From positions 1 through 64,000 of the IMG/VR virus record IMGVR_UViG_3300001528_000580: a stretch of 64,000 nucleotides of DNA. One strand, written 5' to 3'. A model generated the notes under the pieces. It searched no databases, had not been told where the DNA came from, and worked only from the letters and a program-made list of their open reading frames with translations. This stretch comes from a virus (lineage: Duplodnaviria > Caudoviricetes). Both the position numbers and the translations under genes were made by a program. Shown piece by piece: positions 10,908 to 38,535 of the stretch (positions within the stretch are counted from its first letter, which is position 1; the number at the start of each line of letters is the position of its first letter).

Positions 10908-10939
10908 TATTTACCAAATTATTCATAATTTGGTAAATA
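10908..10939. repeat. 14-bp perfect inverted repeat, TTCA core (H1)
   Basis: TATTTACCAAATTA-TTCA-TAATTTGGTAAATA directly before the RBS. Confidence 0.9.
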
Positions 10940-10954
10940 AGGATATTTTAAATT

Positions 10955-12616
10955 ATGATAAAAGTTATAAGTAATTCTTCTAATTTGAGTACATGGTATT
11001 TAGATCCTGGTCAAGCTCCAAATGAGGGTGATGGGAAAAGTATCAGTACACCATTTCAATGGTACAACCATATTGAACAAAATAATAATAATAAAGTTAT
11101 TAATCTACCAAGTAAAAGTTATATAGCTATGACTTTAGAGGCTGGAAAAACATATAATTTTTATAATTATAGTTATAATTATGATGGATATTTGCAACTA
11201 TTTGATAGTAATGGTAATGAATTAACTTCAAATGATGATAGTGGTGGTGGAGAAGGTGCTTCATATCCAGGTGGTTCATTTGATTATTCTATTTCAACAA
11301 CAGGTATATATATATGTGGAGTTGGATTAAATAGAGGTGATTTTAATAATAGTTCATATAAAGATGATTTAATTGTTAAATCAACAGTTGATAATTCTCC
11401 ACCAGTTGATAATAGAACTGATCCCGGATGGAAAAAGAAAACAGGACTAGTAGATGGAAGTGGCTGGAATATTAAAACCGGTAAATTATTTAAATATAGA
11501 AGTATTGAAAATGCTGGAATAAAATTCTCTGATATTCCAAAATATGTTGCTCCATTAGATTTAACAAGTGATAGTAGTTCTGATTGGGAAGTTTCTGCCA
11601 GTTCAATATATGATTCTCGTTTTAATGCTTATAATGCATTTGATGGATTATATAGTGAAAATAATGCTGGTTGGTTTAGTGGCTCTGGACAACCTGCTCC
11701 ACAATGGTTGCAATGGAAGAATTTAAAAGAGAAAGTTAATATAAAAACTTATCTATTACAATTTGGATATGATAGTACAAATAGATATTTTAAATCATGG
11801 GAATTACAAGGTTCTGATAATGGAACTGATTGGGTAAAATTAGATGAAGAAACTAATTTTACTACATCAAGTAAAGGTTATTTGTTAAAAAGAGAAATAA
11901 ATAATAGTAAAAGTTTTTATTATCATAGATTATATATTACAGATGTAACTAATGGATATATAGCTGTTGGTGAATTTAAATGTTGGAATGGTATATTTAA
12001 AGATATTTGGAAAGATATTATTTGTTATTATCCGTTAAAAAATGATGAAACAGATTTATTTAAGATAATTAAGAAAAATACATCATCAAATATAACCAAA
12101 ACAGATGATGGATATTTATTTAATGGTTCTGATAGTTATATTAATCTTGGTAGACAAATGTTTGAAAGTGTCAACGATCAAATCACAATTGCTGGTTGGA
12201 TTAAACCAAATAGTTTAACCAAAGATCAAAGATTAATATCAAAAACAGAAAGTGGAGATTGGCAAATAGGAATAAATGAATCTAATTTTAATAATTATGT
12301 TTGTGGATATTTAAGATTAAATGGAACATATTATAATCCCAAATTTAATGTTAATGATCTTAATTTAAATGAATGGAATCATTTAGCTTTAACATATGAT
12401 GGCAGTTCTATAAAATTATATCATAATGGTATAGTTAAAGATACAGTTAATGCTTCTGGAACAATTTCTCATGGCTCTGCTCCATGTATGATCGGTGCAG
12501 AACCTAATAATAGTGGATATGCAGGTTCTTCATTTGATGGATTAATAAAAAATGTAGGTGTTTGGGCAAGAGGATTAACAGAAGTTGAAATTAAAAAAAT
12601 AATTTCTTTAAAATAA
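10955..12616 (+). CDS. adhesin-like protein: anchor A + discoidin (F5/8C) + LamG
   Basis: AYNAFDG...W...WELQGSDNGTDW...YYHRLYI; then FNG...TIAGWIKP...WNHLALTYDG...LYHNG. Confidence 0.8.
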   Translation: MIKVISNSSNLSTWYLDPGQAPNEGDGKSISTPFQWYNHIEQNNNNKVINLPSKSYIAMTLEAGKTYNFYNYSYNYDGYLQLFDSNGNELTSNDDSGGGEGASYPGGSFDYSISTTGIYICGVGLNRGDFNNSSYKDDLIVKSTVDNSPPVDNRTDPGWKKKTGLVDGSGWNIKTGKLFKYRSIENAGIKFSDIPKYVAPLDLTSDSSSDWEVSASSIYDSRFNAYNAFDGLYSENNAGWFSGSGQPAPQWLQWKNLKEKVNIKTYLLQFGYDSTNRYFKSWELQGSDNGTDWVKLDEETNFTTSSKGYLLKREINNSKSFYYHRLYITDVTNGYIAVGEFKCWNGIFKDIWKDIICYYPLKNDETDLFKIIKKNTSSNITKTDDGYLFNGSDSYINLGRQMFESVNDQITIAGWIKPNSLTKDQRLISKTESGDWQIGINESNFNNYVCGYLRLNGTYYNPKFNVNDLNLNEWNHLALTYDGSSIKLYHNGIVKDTVNASGTISHGSAPCMIGAEPNNSGYAGSSFDGLIKNVGVWARGLTEVEIKKIISLK

Positions 12617-12659
12617 AATTAATAATAAATATATAATATCATAATTAAATATTTTTCTA

Positions 12660-12691
12660 TATTTTTCAAAATATGAATATTTTGAAAAATA
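12660..12691. repeat. 14-bp perfect inverted repeat, TGAA core (H2)
   Basis: TATTTTTCAAAATA-TGAA-TATTTTGAAAAATA. Confidence 0.9.
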
Positions 12692-12706
12692 AAGGTTTTT
12701 AAATAT

Positions 12707-13906
12707 ATGATTAAAGTTTTAAGCAGTTCTAATAAGACTAGTTCTTGGGTTCTTGATCCAGGTGTGCCAGAAGATGGAAATGGAACTAGTTTTGATAATC
12801 CTTTTGTATGGCAATTACATTCTTCAAACAATAATATGAATTTTGATTATATTGCTCCTAATGGTGGAGAATATAGATATGTATTGTTAAAATTAAATTC
12901 TGGTGTTACCTATAATGGTCAGATTGCTGCAAAAACTGGTCCGATAACTTATGTGTTATATTCACAATCAGATTCTAATACAGTAATTGGAACTTTTAGC
13001 TATTATGATTCTCAATCATTTTCTTTTAGTGTTAATCAAGATGGATTGTATATATTTAAATGTGGTTCAGAATTTTATATGCCAGGTGATACTGAAACAT
13101 TAACATTAAACCCTGCACCAGAAACAATATCAGGAGAACCATCATGGAAGAAAATTTCAATAGAAACATCAAAAGGATTGGATGAAATAGGATATTTAAA
13201 TAAATATCAAGACATCTATGACGCAAATATTATTTACTTTGGAATTTGGGATAATACAAGTAATACAAAATTTTATTTAAATTTTTCATAAGAAGATGTT
13301 TCAAAAGGAAATCAAACACCATATAGTATAAATCCATATTCAATAACATGGGATTCAGAAAATAATCCGGTATTTGATGGTTCTAGTTATTTGTCTATTC
13401 CTAATTTTGATAAGAATATTTTTGGTTCTGGTAGTGAATGGACTATTGATTTTTGGATGAAATTGTCAAGTTCATATAGTTCATGGAACAATATATTAGT
13501 TCAAACAAATAATTCAAATGGTGATAATTATTTAAATGAAAGTATAGGATTGGGTATAAATTCAGATCCATCATTATGTTTTTATTATGCTGCAATAAAT
13601 TGTGGATTAGGAAGTGATAGAACTAAAATATATCAAGATAATTTAATTCCAGAACAATGGTATCATATAGCAGTAGATAAATATAAATTAGAAGATAATT
13701 GGCATATTACATATTATGTTAATGGTGTTAATGTTACTGATATAATTTTAACGAAAGAAATTACGCCATATCAATCACATGATGTTTCATTTTCTGGTAT
13801 AAATGATGATAACGGTAGAAGATTTAGAGGTACAATATGTAAACCAAGAATTAGTAATATTGCACTTTTTAAAGGGAACAATTTTGATTTAAAATCTAGA
13901 GTTTAA
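12707..13906 (+). pseudogene. adhesin-like protein (anchor A + LamG) split by an in-frame TAA at 13289-13291
   Basis: ORFs 12707-13291 and 13391-13906 share a frame; FYLNFS*EDVSKGN...FDGSSYLSIP...WTIDFW reads as one LamG domain. Confidence 0.75.
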
Positions 13907-14463
13907 ATATCTTTATATCCGTTTAATTCACTTATTAACAAACCATCTGAACCGTGTTCAGTTACATATATTCTATGATAATAATATCCTCTATTATTTT
14001 CTGGTATAGTGAATGACTTTAATTCATTTTGTGACCAATTTGTAATATTTTCTTTTGAATCTATTGTTTCCCAATCAGAACCATTATTACTACCTTCTAT
14101 TTTCCATGTATAAGGAGAACTATAATTCATGCCATCATTTCTATTTCTTATTTCATATTTTTTAATTAAAACTTTTTGTTTTAAATTTTGCCATATCATA
14201 TAACAAGGAAATGAATTGCTTCCCCATCCATCTTGTTTGTTATTGCTGGTTCCATTGAATGCTCTCCATGCATAGCAAGTAGTACCATCATATGATTCAT
14301 TTGAGGCACTGACTATCCAATCAGGATCAGATGTGTATCCAGTTAAATTTTTTGGTGTTGATATATCAGGAAATTCAGAATAATTAATATTTAAATCGTT
14401 CATATTGTCATATCCATGTGAATATCCATATGATAATTCTTTTTCTTTGTATATTTTTATCAT
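13903..14463 (-). CDS. adhesin-like protein: anchor C + discoidin domain
   Basis: AWRAFNG, WKIEGSNNGSDW, YYYHRIY. Confidence 0.8.
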   Translation of the reverse strand: MIKIYKEKELSYGYSHGYDNMNDLNINYSEFPDISTPKNLTGYTSDPDWIVSASNESYDGTTCYAWRAFNGTSNNKQDGWGSNSFPCYMIWQNLKQKVLIKKYEIRNRNDGMNYSSPYTWKIEGSNNGSDWETIDSKENITNWSQNELKSFTIPENNRGYYYHRIYVTEHGSDGLLISELNGYKDI

Positions 14464-14580
14464 AATTGTTCCTTTTAATAAAACTTTTATCTATAAAAAA
14501 TTATTTAAAAATATGATCCATAATATTTTTCTATATTTTATATAAAATATAAAAGAATAAAATAAATGGAAAGTTTAAAT

Positions 14581-16056
14581 ATGATAAAAGTTATAAACAA
14601 TTCTGCAAATTTAAGCACATGGTATTTAGATCCTGGTGTTGCGAGTGGAGATGGTTCTACAAAAGAAGCTCCTATTGTTTGGAGTGAAAATTCTACTAAC
14701 AATGGAACACATTTAGTATATCCAATTAAAGAAAACAGTGGATATGAAAGTAATAGAGTTTATATATTAATGACATTAAAAGCTGGAACAGCATATTCTC
14801 TTTATATTAATGCAAATTATGGACCAATGTATGGTGAATTATTTAAACAAACTGATTTGAATACTGTTATTGGTAATTATGATTACAGCAGTTCTAATAC
14901 AATAAATGTTTCTGAGGATGGTAATTATATTTTAGGTGTTTATAATTCTTATTCTTATAATGTTGAAGATTATCTAACGTTAAGTCCTGCTCCAGAAACA
15001 ACAGTTGGTGAAGCTGGTTGGAAAAAGAAAGAAGGATTAGTTGATGGTTCTGGTTGGAATAAAATAACAGGTAAGGTTTTTGAATATCGTTCTTTAGAAA
15101 AAGCATCCATTAAATATAATAATTATGTTAATGGTTTATTATATTGGGATTCAAATAAAGCATCTTCAATATCAAGTTATGATGATGCTGTAAGTAAATT
15201 TGAAACTGGCGCTAATGGTCCAATATTTACGGGAAAATTTAATTTAGTTGATGGTGAAGGAAGTTTAATTTCAGGATATACAGATTATTTTATTGTAAAG
15301 ATGAAAGGGTATGTAAGAATAGAAAATCCTGGAACATATATATTTTATACAAATCAAGATGACCAAGTTGCAATGAGGGTTAAAGATATAACTGGTTATT
15401 ATAGTGGTTCAAGCGGATCTTATGGTTCTCGTGTTACGGTAGAATTAGAGAAAGGTTTTCATGAGTTTGAATTTTATTTTGCAGAAGGTAGTGGAAATCA
15501 ATATTATAATATAAAATGGCAACCACCAGATGCAACTACTTATGAAGATATTCCATATGGAGTATTTTGCTGTAAAGCTCAAGATGTTCCTTCTGAATAT
15601 TTTACAATTAGTAGTCCACAATATTTAACTTCAAATACATCTGATCCAAATTGGGAAATTAGTGCAAGCGGAGAAAAATATGGAGATACACAGGCTTGGT
15701 GTGCATTTGCACCAGGTAATAGTTGGAGAGGAGTAGGTGGTACTTGGGGATCTGGTGGGTTGCCATCATGGATTCAATGGAGAAATTTAAATAATAAAGT
15801 TCTTATTAAAAGATATAAAATACAAGGATGTGCTAATTATGGCAGTATAACTGCATGGACATTAGAAGGTTCAAATGATGGCAACAATTGGACAATAATT
15901 GATACACAAAATATTGGTTCTTTCCCATCAGGAAGTGAATTTAAAGAGTTTGATTGTTCAACAAATAATACATCATATTATTATCACAGATTAAATATAA
16001 CAGCATCAGAGGATAGTGATTGTCCAGTTGGTCAGATTATAACTTATTCAAAATAA
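14581..16056 (+). CDS. adhesin-like protein: anchor A + PA14 + discoidin
   Basis: PA14-like GYVRIENPGTYIFYTNQDD...WQPP; discoidin WTLEGSNDG...YYYHRL. Start MIKV at 14581 chosen by paralogy. Confidence 0.8.
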   Translation: MIKVINNSANLSTWYLDPGVASGDGSTKEAPIVWSENSTNNGTHLVYPIKENSGYESNRVYILMTLKAGTAYSLYINANYGPMYGELFKQTDLNTVIGNYDYSSSNTINVSEDGNYILGVYNSYSYNVEDYLTLSPAPETTVGEAGWKKKEGLVDGSGWNKITGKVFEYRSLEKASIKYNNYVNGLLYWDSNKASSISSYDDAVSKFETGANGPIFTGKFNLVDGEGSLISGYTDYFIVKMKGYVRIENPGTYIFYTNQDDQVAMRVKDITGYYSGSSGSYGSRVTVELEKGFHEFEFYFAEGSGNQYYNIKWQPPDATTYEDIPYGVFCCKAQDVPSEYFTISSPQYLTSNTSDPNWEISASGEKYGDTQAWCAFAPGNSWRGVGGTWGSGGLPSWIQWRNLNNKVLIKRYKIQGCANYGSITAWTLEGSNDGNNWTIIDTQNIGSFPSGSEFKEFDCSTNNTSYYYHRLNITASEDSDCPVGQIITYSK

Positions 16057-16066
16057 AGGTTTAAAA

Positions 16067-17203
16067 ATGATAAGAGTATTAAATAATTCAAGTGATTTGT
16101 CAACATGGTATTATAAACCAGCAGTTGTAGATGGAGATGGAACACAAAGTTCTCCCTTTAATTGGTTAGAACAAAGCACTGATGGCGGAACATCGATTAC
16201 TTGTAATCTTGTAAACTCAGGTGATCATAATTGGTATGTTTTTTCTTTAACTGGTGGAACTACTTATAATTTTACTTCATATAGTAGTTCATATCCTGTT
16301 AGTATTAGAATTTATTTACAGTCAGATCCAGATACAGTATTAGCTGATAGACAATATACAGGTAGTGGTTCTGAAAGTTTTTCATTTGTGCCCTCTACTA
16401 GTGATTTATATTTGTTTGAAATGTATAGTGATCCTAATGCTTGTTCAAGTTGTACAGGAACATCTCCAGCTACAATTAGCCCAATACCAAATGAAATTTC
16501 AGCAGAGGGTGGTTATGAAAAGAAGTTAATTGATATGTCTACTGGAATAGACGATGTTGGTTATTTATTTAATTATCAAGATTTAGTTGATAGTGATTTG
16601 TTACATAAAACTATTCCTACAGATGGATTAGTATTTTATGCATCTTTAAAAGAAGATTCAACTAAACCTGAAATTGGAAATAGTTGGACAAGCAAAAGTT
16701 CAAATATTACTTATCAAGAAGTTGATGGTATTCTTTGTGCTACTTTTAATACGGGATCATTAAGAACTAGTTGTTCACAAGATTTCGGAACAAACAAAGT
16801 TACATTATCATCATGGTTTAAAAAGATACAAAATTCTGGAACAACAGCGTGTTTCTTGGTATATGGTTCTGATTCTACATATAGAGTAGCTGGACTTCAA
16901 GAAGCATCTGGATATTTTGCATTGGAAAGGGGTTCAGGTCGTTGGACAACTTCTTTTGCAATGGATGAATCTTGGCATCATTATGCTTGTACAATTGATG
17001 ATACTGTTATAAAATTATATGTTGATGGTGTTAATGTATATGAAACTACACAATCCATGAATTTATCTTTAGATACATTGGCTATTGGTTCGTGGATCAG
17101 TGGAAGTTATAATGTTAAAGGTTATATAGCTGGTTGTAGAGTATATAATAGACCTTTATTAGATAAAGAAATTATTTCTTTATCTAAAGAATTTAAAATT
17201 TAA
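16067..17203 (+). CDS. adhesin-like protein: anchor A + LamG
   Basis: TLSSWFK, WHHYACT, LYVDGV, RVYNRPL. Confidence 0.8.
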   Translation: MIRVLNNSSDLSTWYYKPAVVDGDGTQSSPFNWLEQSTDGGTSITCNLVNSGDHNWYVFSLTGGTTYNFTSYSSSYPVSIRIYLQSDPDTVLADRQYTGSGSESFSFVPSTSDLYLFEMYSDPNACSSCTGTSPATISPIPNEISAEGGYEKKLIDMSTGIDDVGYLFNYQDLVDSDLLHKTIPTDGLVFYASLKEDSTKPEIGNSWTSKSSNITYQEVDGILCATFNTGSLRTSCSQDFGTNKVTLSSWFKKIQNSGTTACFLVYGSDSTYRVAGLQEASGYFALERGSGRWTTSFAMDESWHHYACTIDDTVIKLYVDGVNVYETTQSMNLSLDTLAIGSWISGSYNVKGYIAGCRVYNRPLLDKEIISLSKEFKI

Positions 17204-17212
17204 TAAACACTT

Positions 17213-17776
17213 TTAAATTTTGCTGTATGCAGTAATATTGCCGACACTCATATAACTACTTGGAGATAATGAATAAATTCTGTGATGAAAATATCCAGTT
17301 TCATTATCTTCTAAAGTAAATGTATTGGTGTTTCCGGTATTGTAACTTCCATTTAAAGTTTTTATATTAATCCAATCACTACCATCATCTGAACCTTGTA
17401 AAGCTACACTACTTAAACTGCTACTCCATGCACTATTATAATAACTTGCAGTAATTTCTATTTTTTTTACTAATACTTTTTGTATTTTATTTTGCCATGC
17501 AATCCAATGTGGTTGACTGCTTGCGGTGTGAAAATGTGTTCCATTAGAAGAAGCATATGGTTTGTTAAATGCTATCCACGGTTGTGTATCATCTGCATAT
17601 ACAGTGCTCGCATATACACGCCACTCATCAGTTTCATTACTTGTCATATTAACAGGAGTAGATATTTCAGGGAAAATATAATATTTTACTTTGGCGCTTT
17701 TAAAGTTATTTAACTTATATATTGTTCCATATTCTGAAACAAAATTTTTATCTGATGAAGCATATTTTCTTATCAT
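17213..17776 (-). CDS. adhesin-like protein: anchor B + discoidin
   Basis: PHWIAWQN, LQGSDDGSDW, YFHHRIY. Confidence 0.8.
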   Translation of the reverse strand: MIRKYASSDKNFVSEYGTIYKLNNFKSAKVKYYIFPEISTPVNMTSNETDEWRVYASTVYADDTQPWIAFNKPYASSNGTHFHTASSQPHWIAWQNKIQKVLVKKIEITASYYNSAWSSSLSSVALQGSDDGSDWINIKTLNGSYNTGNTNTFTLEDNETGYFHHRIYSLSPSSYMSVGNITAYSKI

Positions 17777-17854
17777 AAAAACATTTCCTTCTTTTTATAG
17801 ATAAAAAATATAAAAATATCAATAATAAAAATCAAAAGATTTATGATTTTCACC

Positions 17855-17882
17855 TTGATTTTTTATATTTTTATGATATATT
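17855..17882 (+). promoter_or_regulatory. promoter TTGATT-N16-TATATT
   Basis: consensus match upstream of the radical SAM operon. Confidence 0.65.
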
Positions 17883-17916
17883 GTAATACAAAGAAAATAA
17901 AATAAGGGATTTTATT

Positions 17917-18588
17917 ATGGCAACTCGTTTATATATGAATCTTACAAATAATTGTAATGCTAATTGTGAGTTTTGTTGTATGTATTCATCTGCTTGTAAA
18001 AAAACGTTTCTTTCTTTTGAGCGGTTTAAATCAAATATTGATTGTGTTATTGATGATATTGAGCTTCAATTAGAAGGTGGCGAACCTCTTTTGCATAGAG
18101 ATTTCTATCTTTTTCTTGAATATGCAAGACATGTTGAAAAAATTAAAAAAATTATTATTCTTACCAATGGTATTGAATTGAAAAACAATTTATCTCGTAT
18201 TGTTGATTTTCATAAATATTCAAAAATTCCAATTACCATTAAAGTTAGTATTAATTATTGGTTACTTAATATGAATAAAGATCATATTAATTGGTGTCAA
18301 AATTATTATTATGCTACAGAATTTATTCCTGATTTTAATATAATGTTTAATGTTAGATTGAGAAAAAATGAAGATAATAATATTATTAATTCATTAAAGG
18401 AAAAAAATCTTTTTGATCATAGCAATGTATTTTATTTGCAAAGTTATGGAAGATGGACAGATAAAAAAGATTATGAAAAACCAGTTATTGTTCAAAATAT
18501 TGATAATTGGTATGTGTTTGCAAGTGATGGAACTTGTTTTTTTAGGGATTTGATTGCCAGAAGTGAATATGAAAAAACATTGGATTAA
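17917..18588 (+). CDS. radical SAM protein
   Basis: CNANCEFC, GGEP, TNG. Confidence 0.9.
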   Translation: MATRLYMNLTNNCNANCEFCCMYSSACKKTFLSFERFKSNIDCVIDDIELQLEGGEPLLHRDFYLFLEYARHVEKIKKIIILTNGIELKNNLSRIVDFHKYSKIPITIKVSINYWLLNMNKDHINWCQNYYYATEFIPDFNIMFNVRLRKNEDNNIINSLKEKNLFDHSNVFYLQSYGRWTDKKDYEKPVIVQNIDNWYVFASDGTCFFRDLIARSEYEKTLD

Positions 18589-18591
18589 AAT

Positions 18592-19548
18592 ATGAACACA
18601 ATAAAATATTCTCATATTTATGATGTAAAAACAGAAACTCATGATGTTGAGTTTTATAAACATTTTATTTTAGAAATAAATGGTAACGATTATGAAGTTG
18701 ATAATCATGCTTCTTTGATGATTTATCCGACAATTAATTGTAATGGAAAATGTCAGTTTTGCATTAATAAATATGATAATAATTTTAAAAAAATGATTGA
18801 TTGTAATATAAACTATTATTTTAAAAAATTAAATAAGATATTTCAAATTTTTAAAGCTGTGAAACCTGCTATAACTATATGTGGTGGTGAACCAACAATT
18901 TCTGATTATACTATTGAAATTATGGAGTTAGTTAATAAATTTGGATTTCCTGTTAGAACTTTTCCTACAAATGGAACTGGTTTATTGAATAATGATAGTG
19001 GTAAGCCATTTATTCAATATATGTATGAATATGGATTTAATAAAAATATTAATTTGAGTATTCAACATTTTGATAAAGAAAAAAATAAACAAATTATGGG
19101 ATTTTGTTTAGATGATAATGCAATCAGAAGAATAGGTTTTTTTAGTAAAGTAAATAGGCTTGAATTGAGAACTAGTTGTAATTTGTTAAAAAATGGTATA
19201 AAAAATTTATATGATATAGAAAATTATCTTAAATATTTTAGTGAATTTAATATAACTTCTGCTATTTTCAGAGAATTGATTAAAGTTGATAATAAATATT
19301 GTGAAAATAATTTTGTTGATATTGAAACAATAGTAGAAGAAATAGAAAGAAATAAAAATTATTCTTTTATAAGAAAAATGAATGGAGCTTATTATGATGT
19401 TTTTGTTTATAGATTTAATGACTATCTTGTAAAAATTTATAAGGAAAAATTTAAACAAGATGTAAATTATATAAGGGATTTTATTTTTGGAAGTGATGGT
19501 CATTTATATGTTAGTAATGTAAATAAAGATAACAAGTTAATATATTAA
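18592..19548 (+). CDS. radical SAM protein
   Basis: CNGKCQFC, GGEPT, TNG. Confidence 0.9.
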   Translation: MNTIKYSHIYDVKTETHDVEFYKHFILEINGNDYEVDNHASLMIYPTINCNGKCQFCINKYDNNFKKMIDCNINYYFKKLNKIFQIFKAVKPAITICGGEPTISDYTIEIMELVNKFGFPVRTFPTNGTGLLNNDSGKPFIQYMYEYGFNKNINLSIQHFDKEKNKQIMGFCLDDNAIRRIGFFSKVNRLELRTSCNLLKNGIKNLYDIENYLKYFSEFNITSAIFRELIKVDNKYCENNFVDIETIVEEIERNKNYSFIRKMNGAYYDVFVYRFNDYLVKIYKEKFKQDVNYIRDFIFGSDGHLYVSNVNKDNKLIY

Positions 19549-19564
19549 ATTTGGAGAAATAAAG

Positions 19565-20602: not shown

Positions 20603-20613
20603 TCATTTTTCAT

Positions 20614-20641
20614 TTGATTTTTTGTATTTGCAAGTTATATT
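20614..20641 (+). promoter_or_regulatory. promoter TTGATT-N16-TATATT
   Basis: consensus match. Confidence 0.6.
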
Positions 20642-20682
20642 ATATATGGAACAAAGAACAATATAAAATAAGGAATTTTATT

Positions 20683-27879: not shown

Positions 27880-27892
27880 TATAAATATTAAT

Positions 27893-28358: not shown

Positions 28359-28396
28359 ATTAAAATGTTTTATAATAAAAATAGGTAAAAATACTA

Positions 28397-28759: not shown

Positions 28760-28769
28760 GGAATATAAA

Positions 28770-29612: not shown

Positions 29613-29656
29613 AGTTCTAATATAAATGTTAATAATTATAAAATAGTGGATAAATA

Positions 29657-30184: not shown

Positions 30185-30789
30185 TGAATATAAAGATAAA
30201 ATTAACTAAAAAAAGTAAAGATTTAATTGATATATTTGGAATATTAATTAAATATTTTGAAAAAAATGAATTAGTAAGTACAAATGAATTAACTTATTTT
30301 ATAAATAATTATCATAAACTTTTCCCAAAAGAAAATTATTTCTGTTATAAAATAGAAGTAAACAATGAAATAATTGGGACTTTACTTGGCGTAAATTTAA
30401 AAGAATTTATAGTTATTGATTATTTCGCTATTGAGAAGAAATATAGATGTTTGACAAGATATATAATCAATGAACTATTCAATATTGTTAATACGAATAA
30501 ACCAATAGTTGTTGAGGCATCAACAAATACATTATGTAGATTTTATCAAATGATTGGATTTAAAAAGTTTCCTCAACCATATGTTTATCCTAAATGTAAT
30601 ATAAATTTATATTCAAAAACAATAACATTTGAAAAATTTCCATCAAATTTATTGTTTTTATATAATGATGATATAAATTTTTTTGATACTATAAATATAA
30701 TATATTTTACACATTATCAACGTTGGCATAGTATTTATAGTGACAGATATACTATACCATATCAAAAATTTTTATTAAATCTTTTATAA
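30181..30789 (+). CDS. GNAT-like protein
   Basis: IDYFAIEKKYR and RFYQMIGF motifs. Confidence 0.55.
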   Translation: MMNIKIKLTKKSKDLIDIFGILIKYFEKNELVSTNELTYFINNYHKLFPKENYFCYKIEVNNEIIGTLLGVNLKEFIVIDYFAIEKKYRCLTRYIINELFNIVNTNKPIVVEASTNTLCRFYQMIGFKKFPQPYVYPKCNINLYSKTITFEKFPSNLLFLYNDDINFFDTINIIYFTHYQRWHSIYSDRYTIPYQKFLLNLL

Positions 30790-30820
30790 ACTTATAAATA
30801 ATAAATTAAAAGGAATTAAT

Positions 30821-31294
30821 ATGTCAATAGAAATAAAAAGAGTCAAAGGTGGAGATACAAGAAGCTGTGAAAAAAATATTAGTAAAGAAGAACTTCTTGA
30901 ATCAACAGAGCAACACATAGATGATGTACGAAAAGCTATAATGTGGATGATTATGGAATTGTTTATGTCAAGTTCAAAACATGATTATACAAAAGTAAGA
31001 TTAATTGATGAGTTTTATAATGATTTTTCTTATGCTGTAAAAAATAAAACAGATTTTAAAGATTCTGATTGGTATAAAATGCATATATCAACAGAGAGAC
31101 ATCATATAGATAAGATTTGTCCTGATAATATTAATTTATTTGATGTATTAGAACATATTGCTGATATTGTAATGGCTGGATTATCGAGAACAGGTAAGTT
31201 TTATGATGACGAAATATCACCAGATATTTTAATAAAAGCATATCAAAATACCATAAATAAATTAAAAGATAATGTAAAAATAATAGATGGATAA
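30821..31294 (+). CDS. HD-like (DUF5662-type) protein
   Basis: HI, HDYTK, ERHH, EHIAD metal-binding pattern. Confidence 0.6.
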   Translation: MSIEIKRVKGGDTRSCEKNISKEELLESTEQHIDDVRKAIMWMIMELFMSSSKHDYTKVRLIDEFYNDFSYAVKNKTDFKDSDWYKMHISTERHHIDKICPDNINLFDVLEHIADIVMAGLSRTGKFYDDEISPDILIKAYQNTINKLKDNVKIIDG

Positions 31295-31682
31295 AATTAA
31301 TATGAGATTAAATATTAACACATTACCTAACGGAAAATCAGAAATAGATTTTGGCACATTTGATAATGCTGAAATAATTAAAATTTTAGAAGAAAAAACT
31401 TCAACTATAATGCAATATATGAGAAAAAATTTTTCATCTATTACACAAACATTTTTTGTTGTAAATCAAAAAGTAATAGATAGTTTTAATGAAAAATGTA
31501 CTTATAAAAAATCAGAAAACAGAGCATATCATTTGCAAGTAAATCTTAGTAATGGATTAAAAATAATATTTTTATCAAGTAATAGATATTATTATGATGG
31601 AATTAATCATTATGTTGTTGATTATATTGATAATATAAGAACAAATGCAGAACAATTCAAACAATTTTATTATGGATGTTAA
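31287..31682 (+). CDS. hypothetical protein
   Basis: overlap-coupled ORF. Confidence 0.55.
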   Translation: MDKINMRLNINTLPNGKSEIDFGTFDNAEIIKILEEKTSTIMQYMRKNFSSITQTFFVVNQKVIDSFNEKCTYKKSENRAYHLQVNLSNGLKIIFLSSNRYYYDGINHYVVDYIDNIRTNAEQFKQFYYGC

Positions 31683-32171
31683 ATGAAAATATATATTAAA
31701 GATAGATATTGGATTAATAATATATTGAATAAAAAACCAGATTTTTATATGGGTAAAGAAATAATATCTATATATAGTTCAGGTGATACTAGTCCATTTG
31801 TTGATAGATTTAATATATTAAAATTAAATTTTGATGATATAGTTTATCCAGAAGTTTTAAGTGAAAAAGAATTAAATGAAGTTATTTTATTTGATGAAGA
31901 TATGGCTAAACAAATTGTTGAATTTGCACAAAAAATGAATCCAAATAAATTATGTTTTATTCATTGTGATGCAGGAATTAGCAGAAGCGGAGCAGTTGGT
32001 TATGTATTAAATGAATATTTTAATAAGAAATTAGAAAATAATGAAACCGATTTTAATTTTTTTAAGAATGAAAATAAACATATATTACCAAATGATTTAG
32101 TTGTGAAGATATTAAAAAAATCATTTGAACCATTATATTATAAATTATGGAAGGATGCTAATAATGGATAA
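31683..32171 (+). CDS. protein-tyrosine/dual-specificity phosphatase-like protein
   Basis: HCDAGISRS (CX5R) motif. Confidence 0.85.
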   Translation: MKIYIKDRYWINNILNKKPDFYMGKEIISIYSSGDTSPFVDRFNILKLNFDDIVYPEVLSEKELNEVILFDEDMAKQIVEFAQKMNPNKLCFIHCDAGISRSGAVGYVLNEYFNKKLENNETDFNFFKNENKHILPNDLVVKILKKSFEPLYYKLWKDANNG

Positions 32172-32610
32172 ATATAAAGCATATATAAAAGATTTTAATA
32201 TTATAGTTAATGTTGAAAAAATTGATTTTAAAAATAAATTTATTACATGGTTTGATGGACAATATGATAGAAGTTATCCAAAACCAAATAAAATGTATGA
32301 TATTACTAATTTTGATGATTGTATTATATTAAAATATTCTGGATTCTGTGATGATAGAGGAAATGAATTATATGAAGGTGATATTGTTAAATCATTTATA
32401 TTACATCATGGAATAACTACAATAGATTTGTTAAATAAAGAATCAAAATATGTTGTTAAAATTGTTGATAATGATTTTATTTTGCAATCACTTGAAAATC
32501 AAGAAGAATATTGTAAATTATCATCTTTAATATATAGAAAATCAAGAAGAGGAAATAAAGAAATAGTTTCTGTAATAAAAACAAAAAATATATATGAAAA
32601 TTTAGATTAA
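32164..32610 (+). CDS. YopX family protein
   Basis: YSGFCDDRGNELYEGDIV...NIYEN. Confidence 0.75.
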   Translation: MDKYKAYIKDFNIIVNVEKIDFKNKFITWFDGQYDRSYPKPNKMYDITNFDDCIILKYSGFCDDRGNELYEGDIVKSFILHHGITTIDLLNKESKYVVKIVDNDFILQSLENQEEYCKLSSLIYRKSRRGNKEIVSVIKTKNIYENLD

Positions 32611-32619
32611 GGATGTAAT

Positions 32620-32916
32620 ATGAAAACTATACGAGATTACCATATGGCAATAGAAAAAAGGCAAGATTATCAAGAATGGTGTAAAAGAAATGGATATATT
32701 TCTGTTGAAGAATTTTTAAATAGAGGATTAACTTGGGCAATATCAATGTATGATTATGATATTATCGCAGAAGATGCAATTGAAGAATTCGGCAATGACA
32801 TTCCTAATATAGTTAGCGGATTAAAGAATTGGTTAAACTGTCAACATGGTAATGCTAGTTTACAAATAGCAAGGGTAATAGATTCTGTTAAAAAAATTCA
32901 ATTTAATCAAAAATAA
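32620..32916 (+). CDS. hypothetical protein
   Basis: AAGGA RBS. Confidence 0.6.
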   Translation: MKTIRDYHMAIEKRQDYQEWCKRNGYISVEEFLNRGLTWAISMYDYDIIAEDAIEEFGNDIPNIVSGLKNWLNCQHGNASLQIARVIDSVKKIQFNQK

Positions 32917-32955
32917 TAATATTTTTATATTATCCTTTATTAAAAGGAATTTATA

Positions 32956-33840
32956 ATGAAAATAGAAGTAGGAAAATATTTTGCACCACAAAAACCATTT
33001 TTAATAACAAGTGAAATGTTGATTAAAAATGGTTTTTTATTCAAATCACCAGCATGTTATTCTGGAAAAATAATTAAAGTTTTACCAAGTAATGAAATTA
33101 TATATGAAATATTAGGAGAGTATCAAGATAGAATATACTATGATGATTTTAATGAAAAATATATTTATGCAGGTTTTACTAAATATAGATGTCCTTCTTT
33201 TCAAATAAAATATAAATTATTAAATGGAGAAAGTTATTTTGTTAGTAACGAATTAAAATATAATAAAATTTGGAATTTAATTAAATTTAATGGTTATAAT
33301 AAAATTAAAGCAATTAAAAAATTATTGTCTTTAATTGGAAAATTTAAATATGGTGTTGTTGATGTTGAAAATGATAATATTATTACCAATCTAAATGATG
33401 ATATTTTTAGTAATATATATAGTTGGTTAACACCAGATCAAGTATTAAAATATAGATGTGGAGTTTGTTGGGATACTTCTCATGTAAGTAAAATAATTTT
33501 AGAAAAATTAAATATAGAATGTCACGAAATATATTGCGAAATGGATATGAACCAAGATTATCCAACTCATACATTTGTAATAATTAAATTAGATAATAAA
33601 TTTCATATATTTGAAGTTTCTTGGAAAAGTTATATTTCTATTTCTGATGGATTTTATTCTATAAATGAATGCTGTTTTGAAATGTCTAAAAGAATGTATA
33701 ATCAATATCCAAAATCAAAAAATATATCTTTTTATGAAGAAATAAATTATCCTGAATATGGTTGTAGTTGTATTGAGTATATGGATTTTATTAAAAAAAA
33801 TAATCATTGCATATTAATTGATTCGTATATTACAAAATAA
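32956..33840 (+). CDS. transglutaminase/papain-like cysteine-fold protein
   Basis: GVCWD...THTF...FEVSW Cys-His-Glu pattern. Confidence 0.6.
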   Translation: MKIEVGKYFAPQKPFLITSEMLIKNGFLFKSPACYSGKIIKVLPSNEIIYEILGEYQDRIYYDDFNEKYIYAGFTKYRCPSFQIKYKLLNGESYFVSNELKYNKIWNLIKFNGYNKIKAIKKLLSLIGKFKYGVVDVENDNIITNLNDDIFSNIYSWLTPDQVLKYRCGVCWDTSHVSKIILEKLNIECHEIYCEMDMNQDYPTHTFVIIKLDNKFHIFEVSWKSYISISDGFYSINECCFEMSKRMYNQYPKSKNISFYEEINYPEYGCSCIEYMDFIKKNNHCILIDSYITK

Positions 33841-33929
33841 ATTGTTAAAATTATTAATAATATTACATAACAATAACAAACAAAAAAGATAAACAAATAA
33901 AAAAGTCACTCAGTTTTGGAGAAAAATGT

Positions 33930-34415
33930 ATGCTATATAATAAATTGTTAAAATTATCTAAAATATTGCTTGCAGAACAAGCCGATGAAGAACAAAATGT
34001 TGCAATTATGATTGAATATTATGACAATTTTTATAATGCAATAAGAAAACATAATGAACATGAATTTAATGAAATGTTACAATATGTTGATGTTAAAGTA
34101 AATGAATATGCTTATAATTATTCTGATACAGTATTAAAAGAATATTTAAATAAAACATATAAAATATCACCAATAGCTTATGCTTTACAAGCAGATAATT
34201 TATATGCATTTACAAAATTGATAAAACTTGGTTCTGATATAAATGATGAAACACTCGGTTCTAGTTTGCTTGCTATTTGTGCAAAAGATAAAAACAAATC
34301 AATATTTGCAGAACAATTATTAAAAAATCATTGTAAGAAAAATGATGAATTAATTGCTATTGCAAAAATAAATCACAATCCTGATTTTGTAAAAATTTAT
34401 AGAAAATATCAATAA
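33930..34415 (+). CDS. ankyrin-repeat-like protein
   Basis: SPIAYA...LIKLGSDIN...SLLAIC. Confidence 0.55.
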   Translation: MLYNKLLKLSKILLAEQADEEQNVAIMIEYYDNFYNAIRKHNEHEFNEMLQYVDVKVNEYAYNYSDTVLKEYLNKTYKISPIAYALQADNLYAFTKLIKLGSDINDETLGSSLLAICAKDKNKSIFAEQLLKNHCKKNDELIAIAKINHNPDFVKIYRKYQ

Positions 34416-34431
34416 TTAGAGAATTTTTCTA

Positions 34432-34463
34432 TATTTATCAAATTATGAATAATTTGATAAATA
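34432..34463. repeat. 14-bp perfect inverted repeat, TGAA core (H3)
   Basis: TATTTATCAAATTA-TGAA-TAATTTGATAAATA. Confidence 0.9.
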
Positions 34464-34478
34464 AAGGTTTTTCTAGTT

Positions 34479-35051
34479 ATGATAAAAATATATAATGCAA
34501 ATAATAAAGAATTTGTTTCTTCATATGGTACTTCATATAAATTAAATAACCTAACTGATTTAAATATAATATATAATGCTTTTCCATTATTATCTGCACC
34601 AACAGGTTTAACATCCGATACTTCTGATCCTAATTGGACTATAAGTGCAAATTCTTATTTAAATTCTAGTGATGATTGTAAGGCTTACAATGCTTTTAGT
34701 GGAGCAACAGAACTATATGAATATCCAACATGGCATTCAGCAAGTTCTACACAACCTAATTGGTTATGTTGGAAAAATAATAAACAAAAAGTTTTAGTTA
34801 AAAAATTATCAATATGTTGTAGAGGTTATGGAACACAACCATTTGCATCTTTTAAACTACAAGGTTCAAATGATGGATTAGATTGGAATGATTTATTAAA
34901 TGTAACAGGATTATCGTGGAGTAGTGGAGAATTTAAAACATGGACATTACCAGATAATAACAAAGGATTTTATTATCACCGTATTTATATTACTTCGAGT
35001 GAAAATTATACAACTATTTGTCAATTAAAAGCATGGAGTAAAATAGAATAA
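34479..35051 (+). CDS. adhesin-like protein: anchor B + discoidin
   Basis: AYNAF, PNWLCW, FKLQGSNDGLDW, FYYHRIY. Confidence 0.8.
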   Translation: MIKIYNANNKEFVSSYGTSYKLNNLTDLNIIYNAFPLLSAPTGLTSDTSDPNWTISANSYLNSSDDCKAYNAFSGATELYEYPTWHSASSTQPNWLCWKNNKQKVLVKKLSICCRGYGTQPFASFKLQGSNDGLDWNDLLNVTGLSWSSGEFKTWTLPDNNKGFYYHRIYITSSENYTTICQLKAWSKIE

Positions 35052-35094
35052 TTTTAAAAAATATATAATATTTATATTTATAAATATTTTTCTA

Positions 35095-35126
35095 TATCTT
35101 TCAAAATATGAATATTTTGAAAGATA
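35095..35126. repeat. 14-bp perfect inverted repeat, TGAA core (H4)
   Basis: TATCTTTCAAAATA-TGAA-TATTTTGAAAGATA. Confidence 0.9.
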
Positions 35127-35140
35127 AGGAAATTTTAAAT

Positions 35141-35728
35141 ATGATTAAAATATATAATAAAGATCATTTAGTTTATGGATATACGCATGGATATGATAGT
35201 TTAAATAATTCTGATCTTATTTACAAAGAAATAGAATTAGTAACTCCTGACAATATGAGTGATTTTGAAAATGATTTATGGAAAATAACTACAACAGGTC
35301 AATATAGTGATCGTTATATGTGGAAAGCATTTGACAACGATAAATCAACATGGGCAGATTCAAGAGGAAGTACTTCACCAAGATTTTTTGGTTGGAATAG
35401 AAAAGATGGAAAGAAAAGTAAGATAACTTATTATGAAGTATATTCAATAGCAGTTGGTGCTACTGGTGATAATATGGGTGAGTGGAAATTACAAGGTAGT
35501 GACGATGAAACCAATTGGAAAGATGTCCATCATGTTGGTAATCCAAATGTTATAACTTCATGGGTTGATAATAAAAATACTGATGCTCCACCAATGACTT
35601 TTGAAGTAAATTCTAATGAGTATTTTTCAAATTATAGAATCATTTTTATAAGAAATGCTCAAGGTTCTACAAATACAGAATATTTACCATATATATGCGA
35701 ATTTAAAGCATATGGTAAATTTAAATAA
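35141..35728 (+). CDS. adhesin-like protein: anchor C + discoidin
   Basis: WKAFD, WKLQGSDDETNW, YRI. Start MIKIY at 35141 after AAGGA. Confidence 0.8.
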   Translation: MIKIYNKDHLVYGYTHGYDSLNNSDLIYKEIELVTPDNMSDFENDLWKITTTGQYSDRYMWKAFDNDKSTWADSRGSTSPRFFGWNRKDGKKSKITYYEVYSIAVGATGDNMGEWKLQGSDDETNWKDVHHVGNPNVITSWVDNKNTDAPPMTFEVNSNEYFSNYRIIFIRNAQGSTNTEYLPYICEFKAYGKFK

Positions 35729-35775
35729 ATTTTAAATATTTTATATTTTATAAAGATAAAAGGATTTTATAAAAT

Positions 35776-37749
35776 ATGGAAATAGAAAGATTAAATAACT
35801 CTGATTTAAAATTTCTTGAATCAAGAATTAAATTAAAAGGAATGAAGTTAAAACGTTCTAATAAAATATTAATTTCATATAAATTATATAAATTATCAAA
35901 ATTGATTTATGCTGAATTAACACCATCACAAAAATCACTTGTGAAAAAATATGAAAGACAAAGAAATAAGTCGTTAAAATTTGGTGAATTTAATTTTAAT
36001 GGTTTAGGTAGAGCATATTTTAAAGTAAATTATACTGAAAAAGAATTAGAAATAGATCCAGAAATAAAAGAAGTATTAGATAAAGCTGGATTTTTCTGTC
36101 CCGACTATAAGGAAGGATATGTTTATAAAAATGGTGATACAGAGTTAAAAAGAAAATATGGCTTAATCTCTATTTTAGATAAAAATGTTAAAGATAAAGA
36201 TAGATTTAAGCAATTAAAAAAGTTATTTGATGGAAGATTGGGAACAGGCAGAAAAGAAGTAAGCAAAAAGTTATTGTTAGTTATATCTCATAATTCAGAA
36301 GATATTGGTGCAATGAGTACAGGAAGAGATTGGACTTCTTGTATGAATTTAAAGGATGGTATGTATAAAGATACTCCATTAAAGCAAGTAAAATATGGTG
36401 GAATGGTAGCATATTTAATTTTTGAAGATGATAAAAACATTGAACATCCAATAGCTAGAATAGCCATAAAAAGATTTATTAATGAATTAGATGAAAATGC
36501 ATATGTTTTTGCAGCAGAAAACAGAATATATGGAGAAATTGATACTGCTAAAAATGCAAATATGCAAGAACAATTAAAGAAATTATTAGAAAAATCAAAT
36601 AAAGTTACTGGAAAAAGTTCTGGTATTTATGTAAGAAAAGATGAGGATAGTTATTCTGATTCTAAAGTAAATGAAATTGTTAAATTAACTCCTAAAAATG
36701 TGAATGAAATTTTAATGAAGTTTAATGAAGGGCATATTGTTAATAAAATAACAAATCTTATTATTAGTAATGAGATTAAAGTAAAATATCTTAAAAAAGA
36801 TGTTTTTGAAAAATTTTTTAATAATATGAGTAGTTATTCACAATATATAGTAATAATGAACAATAAGATAAAAAGTAAAAAATATATTATACAAACAATA
36901 AAACACTTGTTGGCAGGTAGAGGGTTTAATGATTATCCATCAATGATATTGAATTTATTAATATATGGAAATATTAAAAATAAAAAATTATATATGGAAT
37001 TGTTTAATATTGCAAGTGGAAATACTGTAAAGCGTATAATATCAGAAAAAGATAATAATCCAGAATTATATAATTCATTTTTGAATTATATTTTAAAGAA
37101 CAAAGATGTTTATTTATTGGAAACGTTTATTGTAAGAGGATTAGTTTATTTAAATGAAGATTTGTTAAAATTATATCTTGAAGAAAGACCAAGAGCATTA
37201 ATAGAAATATTAGAAAATAAAGAAGATATTATTAAAAATAATAAAAATTATATAGATATAATAATAAATTATTTTAACAAAAATGATGATGGAGATAATT
37301 TTTTATATAAGTTTTTAGATTTGTTCAATGAATATATGACTGATGAACAAATTGATAAAATACTTAAAAATTTGGCAAATGGTTATTATCAAAATGTAAT
37401 GGTTAATTGCTATGAAAAATATCCAAAATTCAGAGATAATATTATTGAATATCTTTTTGAATCTAAAAAAATTGCAATGCTTTATACATTAATGGCAAAA
37501 CATGATGTTAAATTTACTGACGAACAATTCAAAGAAATGATTTATAATGGCATTAATAATGGTATAGAAAGCCATATTTTAGTAAGAATGATACGTGAAG
37601 GTATGATTACTGATAATACAATGAAAAGTGATATTATTGATTCTTTGATTAAAGAAAGAGAAGATTATTTCTTAAGAGAATTGTTAAAAAGAGGTACTAA
37701 TAAGGAAATGAAAGAAAAAATAAGAAAGTATTTAAGAACAAGAAGATAA
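35776..37749 (+). CDS. large phage protein with MSTGRDWTSCM domain and helical C-terminus
   Basis: 657 aa ORF, AAGGA RBS; function unknown. Confidence 0.7.
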   Translation: MEIERLNNSDLKFLESRIKLKGMKLKRSNKILISYKLYKLSKLIYAELTPSQKSLVKKYERQRNKSLKFGEFNFNGLGRAYFKVNYTEKELEIDPEIKEVLDKAGFFCPDYKEGYVYKNGDTELKRKYGLISILDKNVKDKDRFKQLKKLFDGRLGTGRKEVSKKLLLVISHNSEDIGAMSTGRDWTSCMNLKDGMYKDTPLKQVKYGGMVAYLIFEDDKNIEHPIARIAIKRFINELDENAYVFAAENRIYGEIDTAKNANMQEQLKKLLEKSNKVTGKSSGIYVRKDEDSYSDSKVNEIVKLTPKNVNEILMKFNEGHIVNKITNLIISNEIKVKYLKKDVFEKFFNNMSSYSQYIVIMNNKIKSKKYIIQTIKHLLAGRGFNDYPSMILNLLIYGNIKNKKLYMELFNIASGNTVKRIISEKDNNPELYNSFLNYILKNKDVYLLETFIVRGLVYLNEDLLKLYLEERPRALIEILENKEDIIKNNKNYIDIIINYFNKNDDGDNFLYKFLDLFNEYMTDEQIDKILKNLANGYYQNVMVNCYEKYPKFRDNIIEYLFESKKIAMLYTLMAKHDVKFTDEQFKEMIYNGINNGIESHILVRMIREGMITDNTMKSDIIDSLIKEREDYFLRELLKRGTNKEMKEKIRKYLRTRR

Positions 37750-37769
37750 AATATTAAAATATTTTATAT

Positions 37770-37808
37770 AATCTCATAATCATTTATGTGGTTATGAGAT
37801 TTTTTTTA
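37770..37808 (+). terminator. intrinsic terminator
   Basis: AATCTCATAATCA/TGGTTATGAGATT stem plus T-run. Confidence 0.55.
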
Positions 37809-38495
37809 TATTCTTTAAGCTATAAAGATCATTTAGTCTATGGATATTGTAAAGGATATGATAGTTGTAGTGGAGCAGATATATTATATAGATTAATTCC
37901 AACAGAAGGATTAGTTCTTGATATACCATTAAAGGAAGATAAAAATATTGCAGAAACCGGACAAACTTTGACTAAAAATGGAACTATATTGTATCAAGTT
38001 GATTCTGGTATACCATGCGCTTATTTGGACACATCAAATTATATTACATTTGCAACAACAAATCTTCCAACAGGAAGTTCACCAAGAACAATAAGTTTAT
38101 GGACGAAAATACAAACATATGGGTATGTTTTTTCATATGGTGATTATAGTAGCACAAGGTTTTTCGGATTACAGTTTAGATCATCTGATATTGTTTATTT
38201 TACACAACATGGTGGTGGAGTATATGTTAATTCTACAAAAGATTTAACTTCATGGCATCATATTTGTATGACATTATCAGATAGTAATGCTTTGAATTGT
38301 GTTTTTTATGTTGATGGAGTGAAATATAATTTAAAATCAGTTGGTGGTGGAACAATTAATACAAATAGTACAACTGGTCATTTAATGGGAAGATCAGGCA
38401 ATCATGTTAAAGGATATTTATCATCAGTTAGATTATATAACAGAGTTTTATCAGAAGATGAAATTGTATTATTATCTAAAGAATTCAAGATTTAA
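37788..38495 (+). CDS. adhesin-like protein: anchor C + LamG (start uncertain)
   Basis: KDHLVYGY anchor; TISLW, WHHICMT, FYVDG, RLYNRVL. Confidence 0.7.
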   Translation: MVMRFFLYSLSYKDHLVYGYCKGYDSCSGADILYRLIPTEGLVLDIPLKEDKNIAETGQTLTKNGTILYQVDSGIPCAYLDTSNYITFATTNLPTGSSPRTISLWTKIQTYGYVFSYGDYSSTRFFGLQFRSSDIVYFTQHGGGVYVNSTKDLTSWHHICMTLSDSNALNCVFYVDGVKYNLKSVGGGTINTNSTTGHLMGRSGNHVKGYLSSVRLYNRVLSEDEIVLLSKEFKI

Positions 38496-38509
38496 ATATT
38501 TTTTTATAT

Positions 38510-38535
38510 TCTCTAAACTATTCATAGTTTAGAGA
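38510..38535. repeat. 11-bp perfect inverted repeat, TTCA core (H5)
   Basis: TCTCTAAACTA-TTCA-TAGTTTAGAGA. Confidence 0.85.

Follow-up and report, generated by a model that had tools for sequence, protein, structure and literature searches.

Introduction

The PeSL (promoter-early stem-loop) cassettes of T4-like myoviruses, each combining a promoter, a stem-loop and a ribosome binding site (RBS), terminate transcription arriving from upstream and mediate gene shuffling (PMC2839356, PMC4122927). The T4 genes e, soc, 49 and I-TevI have an inhibitory hairpin whose 5′ strand is encoded by DNA containing a late promoter (PMC3014915). Here we describe five hairpins, H1 to H5 (Table 1), found in front of putative adhesin genes in the first 64,000 nucleotides (nt) of the virus record IMGVR_UViG_3300001528_000580, a gut phage of the Caudoviricetes; this stretch is called the window. 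The record is complete, with 440,868 bp, direct terminal repeats and 25% GC. The cassettes to which the hairpins belong are real and well documented. They are a known promoter/stem-loop design in a new form, and the function given to them here is the one that their sequence suggests.

The likeness to PeSLs lies in the layout: a short intergenic promoter (putative at this locus), a stem-loop overlapping or following the −10 box, an RBS and a start codon. The unit recurs ahead of accessory genes in a plastic region, and it marks the edges of the indels and replacements that distinguish close relatives. With the promoter defined by its motif, the stem-loop overlaps or adjoins the −10 box in every copy of the present set. 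A stop of upstream transcription, shown for PeSLs, is proposed for H1 to H5 by analogy. Unlike PeSLs, whose early promoters match the sigma-70 −35/−10 consensus and have an AT-rich upstream region, the cassettes lack that consensus and carry instead a T-run followed by TATAT(T), with no −35 element. Their stems are AT-rich perfect palindromes of 11 to 14 bp, whereas those of PeSLs are of the G-tract/C-tract kind. The cassettes are also tied to one paralogous gene family and run into its first ~30 codons, their loops invert frequently, and their carrier is a 441-kb gut phage of 25% GC that is not T4-like.

The explanation that we favor, while placing no more belief than doubt in it, is that these are cassettes of the PeSL kind whose hairpin forms in read-through RNA alone, attenuating transcription there and masking the RBS. 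The motif would be a −10-type promoter element, and the gene's own transcripts would begin inside the 5′ arm and be unable to form the hairpin. Transcripts reading through from upstream genes would carry both arms and fold. In such RNA the hairpin, together with an extension of its base over the AGG and a short U-run, would attenuate transcription and hide the RBS, leaving each gene dependent on its own promoter. This insulating function, deduced rather than observed, is the weakest part of the explanation. If the explanation is true, promoter/stem-loop cassettes reach beyond the T4-like phages, the only group for which they are described in the literature that we found, and also organize, in a huge gut phage that has not been cultured, a variable set of genes with a probable part in host binding.

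Five Long Hairpins Adjoin a Promoter-Like Motif

A previous annotation made from the letters of the window alone (hereafter the sequence-only reading) had listed five inverted repeats. All five were recovered at their positions, four with perfect 14-bp stems and 4-nt loops and the fifth with an 11-bp stem. The centre is TA-TGAA-TA in three (H2, H3 and H4) and TA-TTCA-TA in two (H1 and H5). The left flank TTTTTYTATAT is common to all, and A(A)GG stands immediately 3′ of the stem in four. A search pattern made of flank and centre found five matches in the window against none in 100 shuffles. Only 31 hairpins in the 440,868-bp genome combine a perfect stem of 11 bp or longer with a 4-nt loop, H1 to H5 among them. 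A genome-wide scan for the element, which the sequence-only reading had proposed, showed that the other 123 copies of the 8-mer centre all lack complementary flanks. H1 to H5 are thus the only hairpins of their kind in the complete genome.

Relatives were sought by protein look-ups, which led to 18 related contigs in ENA and Logan assemblies (cited here by L-numbers), with neighboring genes 71–95% identical to those of the window. Megablast with 25 kb of the window found no relative among GenBank phages, nor did a related-locus search of IMG/VR with two proteins. The flank-plus-centre pattern gave more than 113 single matches in IMG/VR, but their flanks are unrelated and no more than 11 of 14 positions pair, so that none is a real hairpin; a stricter 32-nt degenerate pattern had no match in IMG/VR or the JGI metagenomes. 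Two distant contigs (one of 242 kb, with 46.5% GC in the fetched stretch, and one of 366 kb) showed no LamG or discoidin genes and no hairpins near the homologue. Window and related contigs together yielded a catalogue of 44 hairpin copies with 13 distinct stems, the copies not being independent of one another. Each copy lies directly 3′ of the motif, the stem beginning either 2 nt inside TATAT or just after it, and the order motif, hairpin, A(A)GG, ATG is kept in all five window copies as in all 44 of the catalogue.

That the hairpins sit against a promoter-like motif was borne out, the motif being a putative promoter by its sequence. TTTT[CT]TATAT occurs in 41 of 294 upstream regions in the sense orientation, compared with 14 in antisense, mostly 17–49 nt before the start codon, and is also found before a homologue in the distant 366-kb relative. 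The next base is T at 32 of 40 sites, extending the motif to TATATT. The same hexamer is part of a different motif, the genome's sigma-70-like class TGCTATATT, of the extended −10 type. This class has 25 sense occurrences in upstream regions (for example those at window positions 7797, 24989, 39378, 41704 and 49833) against 2 in antisense, and it probably represents the promoter class of the host sigma-70/sigma-A factor. Terminator tails account for only 4 of 42 T-run/TATAT sites. If the motif is a −10 element, transcription would start ~10–12 nt into the 14-nt 5′ arm. Ten motif-preceded genes elsewhere received no structural assignments in PHROG annotation, and the operon containing the single gene with a weak capsid likeness lacks the motif; for these reasons the motif cannot be called "late". 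A sigma-70 scan placed a −10-like hexamer over the start codon and its −35-like partner within the 3′ arm; since matches were as numerous in shuffles, this was taken as chance.

The N4 hairpin promoter, which serves a T7-like virion RNA polymerase, has a 5–7 bp stem and a 3-nt loop; the stems described here are of 11–14 bp, with loops of 4–5 nt. PF00940 (T7-like RNA polymerase) had no match in the genome, but control genomes gave none either.

A leader of similar make precedes an HNH endonuclease gene (genome 90493–91467): the segment 90437–90492 holds the T-run/TATAT motif followed by a 13-bp hairpin with the RBS in its 3′ arm. This leader recalls the control of T4 homing-endonuclease genes.

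Table 1. Hairpins, adjoining motifs and associated features in the window.
Feature	Position	Strand	Remarks
Promoter-like motif (T-run + TATAT) abutting H1	10900–10910	+	
H1 hairpin	10908–10939	+	Perfect 14-bp stem, loop TTCA; AGG RBS of gene 10955–12616 directly after
Promoter-like motif abutting H2	12652–12662	+	
H2 hairpin	12660–12691	+	Perfect 14-bp stem, loop TGAA; gene 12707–13291
AT-only 20-bp palindrome	14532–14551	+	Directly after motif (14527–14536), in leader of family member 14581–16056
Promoter-like motif abutting H3	34424–34434	+	
H3 hairpin	34432–34463	+	Perfect 14-bp stem, loop TGAA (TTCA in orthologue L119); gene 34479–35051
Promoter-like motif abutting H4	35087–35097	+	
H4 hairpin	35095–35126	+	Perfect 14-bp stem, loop TGAA; gene 35141–35728
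Degenerate sixth hairpin	37770–37801	+	13 pairs including one G-T, 6-nt loop, then eight T; terminator-like
Orphan 5′ arm of family hairpin	37812–37822	+	Joined directly to about codon 6 of gene 37788–38495
Promoter-like motif abutting H5	38499–38509	+	
H5 first hairpin	38510–38535	+	Perfect 11-bp stem, loop TTCA
H5 second hairpin	38538–38577	+	16-bp stem with G-U pair; buries RBS and AUG of gene 38576–39301 (LamG)
IS200/IS605-type element	50383–51917	−	Y1 TnpA 51504–51917, TnpB 50383–51507

The Hairpins Are Part of a Duplicated 5′ Module

The sequence-only reading had the hairpins mark discoidin/LamG genes. Pfam discoidin (F5/8 type C) and/or LamG domains were found in three of the five downstream genes (discoidin and LamG behind H1, discoidin behind H3, LamG behind H5), and the gene behind H4 matches discoidin-type PHROG families. 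The truncated gene behind H2 had no domain or family match in Pfam or PHROG. It is cut by a TAA at 13289–13291 where three related contigs have CAA (Gln), and a LamG-matching part, through which the relatives read, continues in the same frame to 13906. Together, these observations identify the H2 gene of this strain, as judged from its sequence, as a nonsense allele. The association thus stands, but it is one of shared descent. In the 441-kb genome, five LamG and three discoidin matches exceed the Pfam cut-offs, and every one lies inside the window. All five downstream proteins begin with MIK(V/I) or MIRI; in the family, discoidin and/or LamG domains make up the C-terminal part.

Counted by N-terminus and leader, the family has nine members in the window, five with the long hairpin. 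Member 37788 has a degenerate hairpin and a broken leader, member 14581 an AT-only palindrome in place of the long hairpin, and two minus-strand members retain the motif or a variant of it without a strong hairpin. It is nearly certain that the hairpins are part of a duplicated 5′ module comprising T-run and TATAT(T), hairpin, RBS and MIK(V/I) N-terminus, and the common descent of this module (motif, hairpin, RBS and first codons) accounts for the tie to "adhesin" genes. Cassette copies were duplicated and exchanged along with the first ~30 codons of the gene. Neighbors of the putative adhesin genes encode radical-SAM, nucleotidyltransferase and lysozyme proteins, with no structural module.

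In the LamG gene 37788–38495, a deletion ending at the apex of a hairpin has removed the native leader and start. The GTG/ATG start listed for this gene falls within the 3′ arm of the degenerate hairpin upstream and lacks an RBS, so that the gene may be silent.

Stems Change on Both Sides and Loops Invert

Among the 13 stems, 8 of the 11 apical pairs vary, and all changes are double-sided except for one G-T in one lineage. The most conserved part of the hairpin is the apical AAnTA-loop-TAnTT. The compensatory changes reported within the window are present: H2 and H4 differ by one pair (T-A to C-G), and H1 and H3 by one pair (C-G to T-A) plus a flipped loop. The covariation noticed by the sequence-only reading is therefore genuine; as a sign of selection it is weaker than was assumed there, since template switching yields double changes in a single step (PMC8794818). 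An ordinary course of stem evolution is illustrated by a bidirectional terminator at window position 9857–9889, in which two changes among relatives produce A-C mismatches on the plus strand and G-U pairs on the minus strand; going by these sequences, this terminator follows the usual RNA route, unlike the palindromes of H1 to H5.

Comparison of orthologous sites confirmed that the loop is tolerated both ways and inverts at the DNA level, near-identical strains differing by the flipped loop alone. At the H1 site, three contigs encoding an identical downstream protein have TGAA in one case and TTCA in two; the H2 site of the same three contigs has, independently of H1, TTCA in two and TGAA in one. 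H3 and H4 have TGAA in the window and TTCA in relatives, with H4-type stems carrying TTCA in 12 of 12 copies from related contigs. A further site shows TTCA in one contig and TGAA in two. Two contigs encoding an identical neighboring protein differ in a 5-nt loop, which is TTCCA in one and TGGAA in the other. Flips thus recur at six sites, namely the orthologous positions of H1 to H4 and two further hairpin types, and of the six stems with three or more copies, five carry both loop orientations. None of 19 short (7–8 bp) inverted repeats with orthologues in the same contigs, compared as a control, had flipped. Since a different, 5-nt loop also flips, flipping is a property of the long perfect palindrome and not of a TGAA "core".

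Template switching by DNA polymerase is known to homogenize the arms of inverted repeats and to invert their spacers or loops (PMC8794818, PMC8604942, PMC7202029), and minute inversions have been described in chloroplast hairpins (PMC12371153). The hairpins studied here share with such sites perfect stems, compensatory changes without intermediates, 4–5-nt loops replaced by their reverse complement while the arms remain unchanged, and flips confined to long stems; a single non-Watson-Crick cell type occurs among the 13 stems. They differ from the published cases in that flips recur at six sites among nearly identical strains, and the mechanism is assigned by analogy. By that analogy (PMC8794818, PMC8604942), switching at perfect inverted repeats, with no recombinase involved, is the probable source of the perfect arms, the one-step double changes and the flips. 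Perfect stems, "compensatory" double changes and flipped loops may then all stem from one mutational process, and such patterns alone prove neither selection on structure nor a recombinase. With its many natural flips among near-identical strains, the locus offers a convenient case for the study of template switching in phage replication.

Template switching by itself is enough to make and maintain perfect stems and to invert their loops (PMC8794818, PMC8604942), and the palindromes could be self-maintaining by-products with no function of their own, hitch-hiking in the duplicated 5′ module. In L117 and L120–L123 the hairpin stays perfect although the RBS is mutated and the gene truncated, and two family members do without a strong hairpin, as this would predict. 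We consider it distinctly unlikely, however, because the hairpin keeps a constant register to motif and RBS across 13 distinct versions, retains its base extension and U-run, and is related to second hairpins that are under RNA-level selection (see below).

A perfect palindrome positioned at a promoter-like motif could also be an operator, or a cruciform, just downstream of the −10-like motif, bound by a dimeric phage or host protein that represses or activates. A centre kept in either orientation is expected if both DNA strands read alike. Moreover, the H4 stem is unchanged between clades with flanking DNA 80% identical; by our own calculation, the chance of no change in its 28 nt is ~0.002. 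On the other hand, arms that differ at 8 of 11 apical positions with pairing kept are unlike a sequence-specific operator. The G-T pairs seen in one lineage and in the degenerate copy would be G-U pairs in sense transcripts. The second hairpins, moreover, are clearly structures of RNA, and no regulator gene is linked to the locus. Binding of this kind therefore appears unlikely.

The flips suggested one further role, that of a heritable expression switch operating without a recombinase. With the loop as TTCA, the apex of the hairpin is a repeat of the RBS-pairing strand; with the loop as TGAA, it mimics the RBS strand. Frequent flips at each gene would then give a phage population with a shifting mix of expressed adhesin-like subsets. 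Thermodynamic folding predicts no effect of the flip on full-length leaders, which weighs against such a switch, and we hold it to be very improbable.

Predicted Folding of the Leaders

In the minimum-energy folds of H2, H3 and H4, the stem extends past one mismatch, bringing the RBS (AGG) into pairing with UCU from the T-run; in H4 this base extension of 4–5 bp covers AGGAA. A run of four or five U follows the extended stem. Folding energies are predicted at −11 to −19 kcal/mol. For H1 to H4, the predicted chance of an unpaired RBS rises from 0.18–0.41 to 0.43–0.97 when the RNA begins at the inferred start, as the cassette explanation would have it.

In H5 and eight related leaders, a second hairpin buries the RBS and often the AUG. 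The consensus of these nine leaders has 25 pairs, with 225 of 225 cells paired and nine pairs changed on both sides; its covariation score was reached by none of 500 shuffles, and pairing falls to 37–50% when the partner strand is slid. The two helices evolve differently, the first by double changes with one G-U, the second with many G-U pairs and one-sided changes. Clearly, the second hairpins are under RNA-level selection and follow the usual RNA pattern. In all nine leaders, the arm end and loop of the first hairpin (…CTATTC[C]A) repeat the 5′ strand of the second hairpin, 8–11 of 12–13 nt being identical. This resemblance leads us to infer that partial duplication of the second hairpin gave rise to the first, an origin that would account for the conserved centre with no need of a recombinase core. 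The possibility that the 3′ arm of the first hairpin pairs with the 5′ arm of the second as an RNA switch was rejected, the second hairpin being far more stable in every model.

As in the T4 leaders of e, soc, 49 and I-TevI, the helix involves the RBS and the genes are embedded among co-oriented others, those of T4 being needed later. Placement of the promoter in the 5′ strand would fit the first hairpin, to judge from the position of the motif, but not the second hairpin of H5-type leaders. The differences from T4 are that H1 to H4 touch the RBS by base extension alone, that the burying hairpin of H5-type leaders lies downstream of the inferred start, and that no gp55-like factor was found in the genome.

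In the com/mom system of phage Mu, a binding hairpin stands beside a translation-inhibiting stem, and the two-hairpin leaders look similar. The first hairpin might accordingly be a handle in the gene's own mRNA leader, recognized by a trans-acting factor that unlocks or processes it (a Com-like activator, RNase III or a small RNA). The burial of the RBS in nine leaders by an RNA-evolved second hairpin speaks for such a handle, as does the strong conservation of the apical AAnTA-loop-TAnTT, and with the RBS buried whatever the start site some activator would be needed. Yet a loop-specific RNA-binding protein would not accept both UUCA and UGAA at one site in near-identical strains, the RBS is just weakly paired in the single-hairpin leaders H1 to H4, no Rfam family matches window positions 10.5–39.5 kb, and no candidate factor was identified. 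We therefore regard a leader handle as doubtful, if worth keeping in mind.

Several points weigh against the PeSL-like explanation as well. The promoter role of the motif is argued from orientation bias, position and conservation; a conserved −35 was not found across 40 aligned motif sites, and no phage sigma factor or RNA polymerase domain was detected in the genome. The stems are AT-rich and the U-runs short (4–5 nt) and interrupted, so that they are not canonical terminators. Lying downstream of the inferred start, the second hairpin of H5-type leaders keeps the RBS buried from either start, with a predicted unpaired chance of 0.01–0.09. These leaders would thus need a further activating step, which the proposed model does not supply; the always-buried RBS points to additional activation of these genes. 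Finally, the catalogue holds 36 loops of the TTCA type (27 TTCA, 5 TTCCA, 4 TTTCA) and 8 of the TGAA type (7 TGAA, 1 TGGAA), a skew that neutral flipping does not predict and that shared ancestry may explain.

Rearrangements Fall Mostly Outside the Hairpins

Inverted arms around a short asymmetric centre are found in loxP and dif sites, and attC sites conserve structure over sequence. On this likeness the sequence-only reading had raised the idea of a recombination or cassette site (lox/dif/attC-like, or the hairpin of an HUH transposase) that shuffles adhesin genes. Gene content at the cassette positions does differ among strains, with cassette-sized gains and losses. When gene order was compared, however, seven of eight mapped rearrangement junctions fell outside the hairpin, at module edges or conserved coding ends. 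Between the window and L141, similarity ends within the H1 gene (11546) and returns with the first T-run base of the H2 cassette (12651). Between the window and L119 it is lost ~33 codons after the start of the H3 gene (34576) and returns shortly before the H4 cassette (35065); behind an unchanged leader and N-terminus, a LamG C-terminus has thus taken the place of a discoidin one. Both points of resumption are left cassette edges, a position at indel borders that is a trait of PeSLs. The H5 gene is missing in L124, the loss lying between conserved 3′ ends (38500/39221), and a 2.36-kb inversion and translocation between L117 and L121 ends ~17 nt upstream of a T-run. The sole exception is a deletion in the window ending exactly at the 5′ arm/loop boundary 37822/37823, which relative to L116 removed the loop, 3′ arm, second hairpin, RBS and start codon.

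The 2.36-kb block (L117 1–2355, L121 5790–8147) is inverted and placed on the opposite side of the adhesin array in two contigs of one clade. Three genes make up the block: one for a dual-specificity phosphatase, a LamG gene together with its cassette, and one other.

The statement that the window encodes no recombinase was wrong: an IS200/IS605 Y1 (HUH) transposase is encoded on the minus strand (Table 1). Besides this transposase, the variable gene content and the deletion at 37822/37823, a crossover mapped in the loop of one PeSL in RB49 (PMC2839356) could be cited in favor of a recombination site. But no hairpin copy occurs near the ends of the IS200/IS605 element, the five copies being confined to 10.9–38.5 kb. 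PF00589 (tyrosine recombinase) had no match in the complete 440,868-bp genome, while the control was positive in 14 of 14 genomes, and PF00078 (reverse transcriptase) likewise found none; the one resolvase in the genome, at 113 kb, is 75 kb away. The arms vary and are not conserved protein-binding sequences, the 5-nt loop flips too, crossovers are not in the centre, and the perfect stems of H1 to H5 lack the extrahelical bases of the imperfect attC stems. The case for the absence of site-specific recombination at the hairpins is strong, and a site of this kind, largely refuted, is now hardly credible. Under the PeSL-like explanation, adhesin-like genes would be shuffled by ordinary homologous recombination, with the whole cassette and the conserved gene ends as patches of homology.

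Two other origins were discarded: the target hairpin of a diversity-generating retroelement, as there is no reverse transcriptase (PF00078) in the genome, and an IS200/IS605 end or REP-type hairpin, as no copy lies near the TnpA/TnpB element. TnpB-type genes are variable among the related contigs in this region, and L114 carries a resolvase and TnpB pair.

Other Palindromes

A separate family of 11-bp palindromes with TCGA-type centres occurs at window positions 60007–60032 and 62737–62762 and at genome positions 66881, 68801 and 82755. At window position 46608–46639 there is a perfect 14+14 palindrome with a self-complementary GTAC centre, an identical copy of which is found in L116 (13064–13091), where the end of the contig cuts it to 12 bp.

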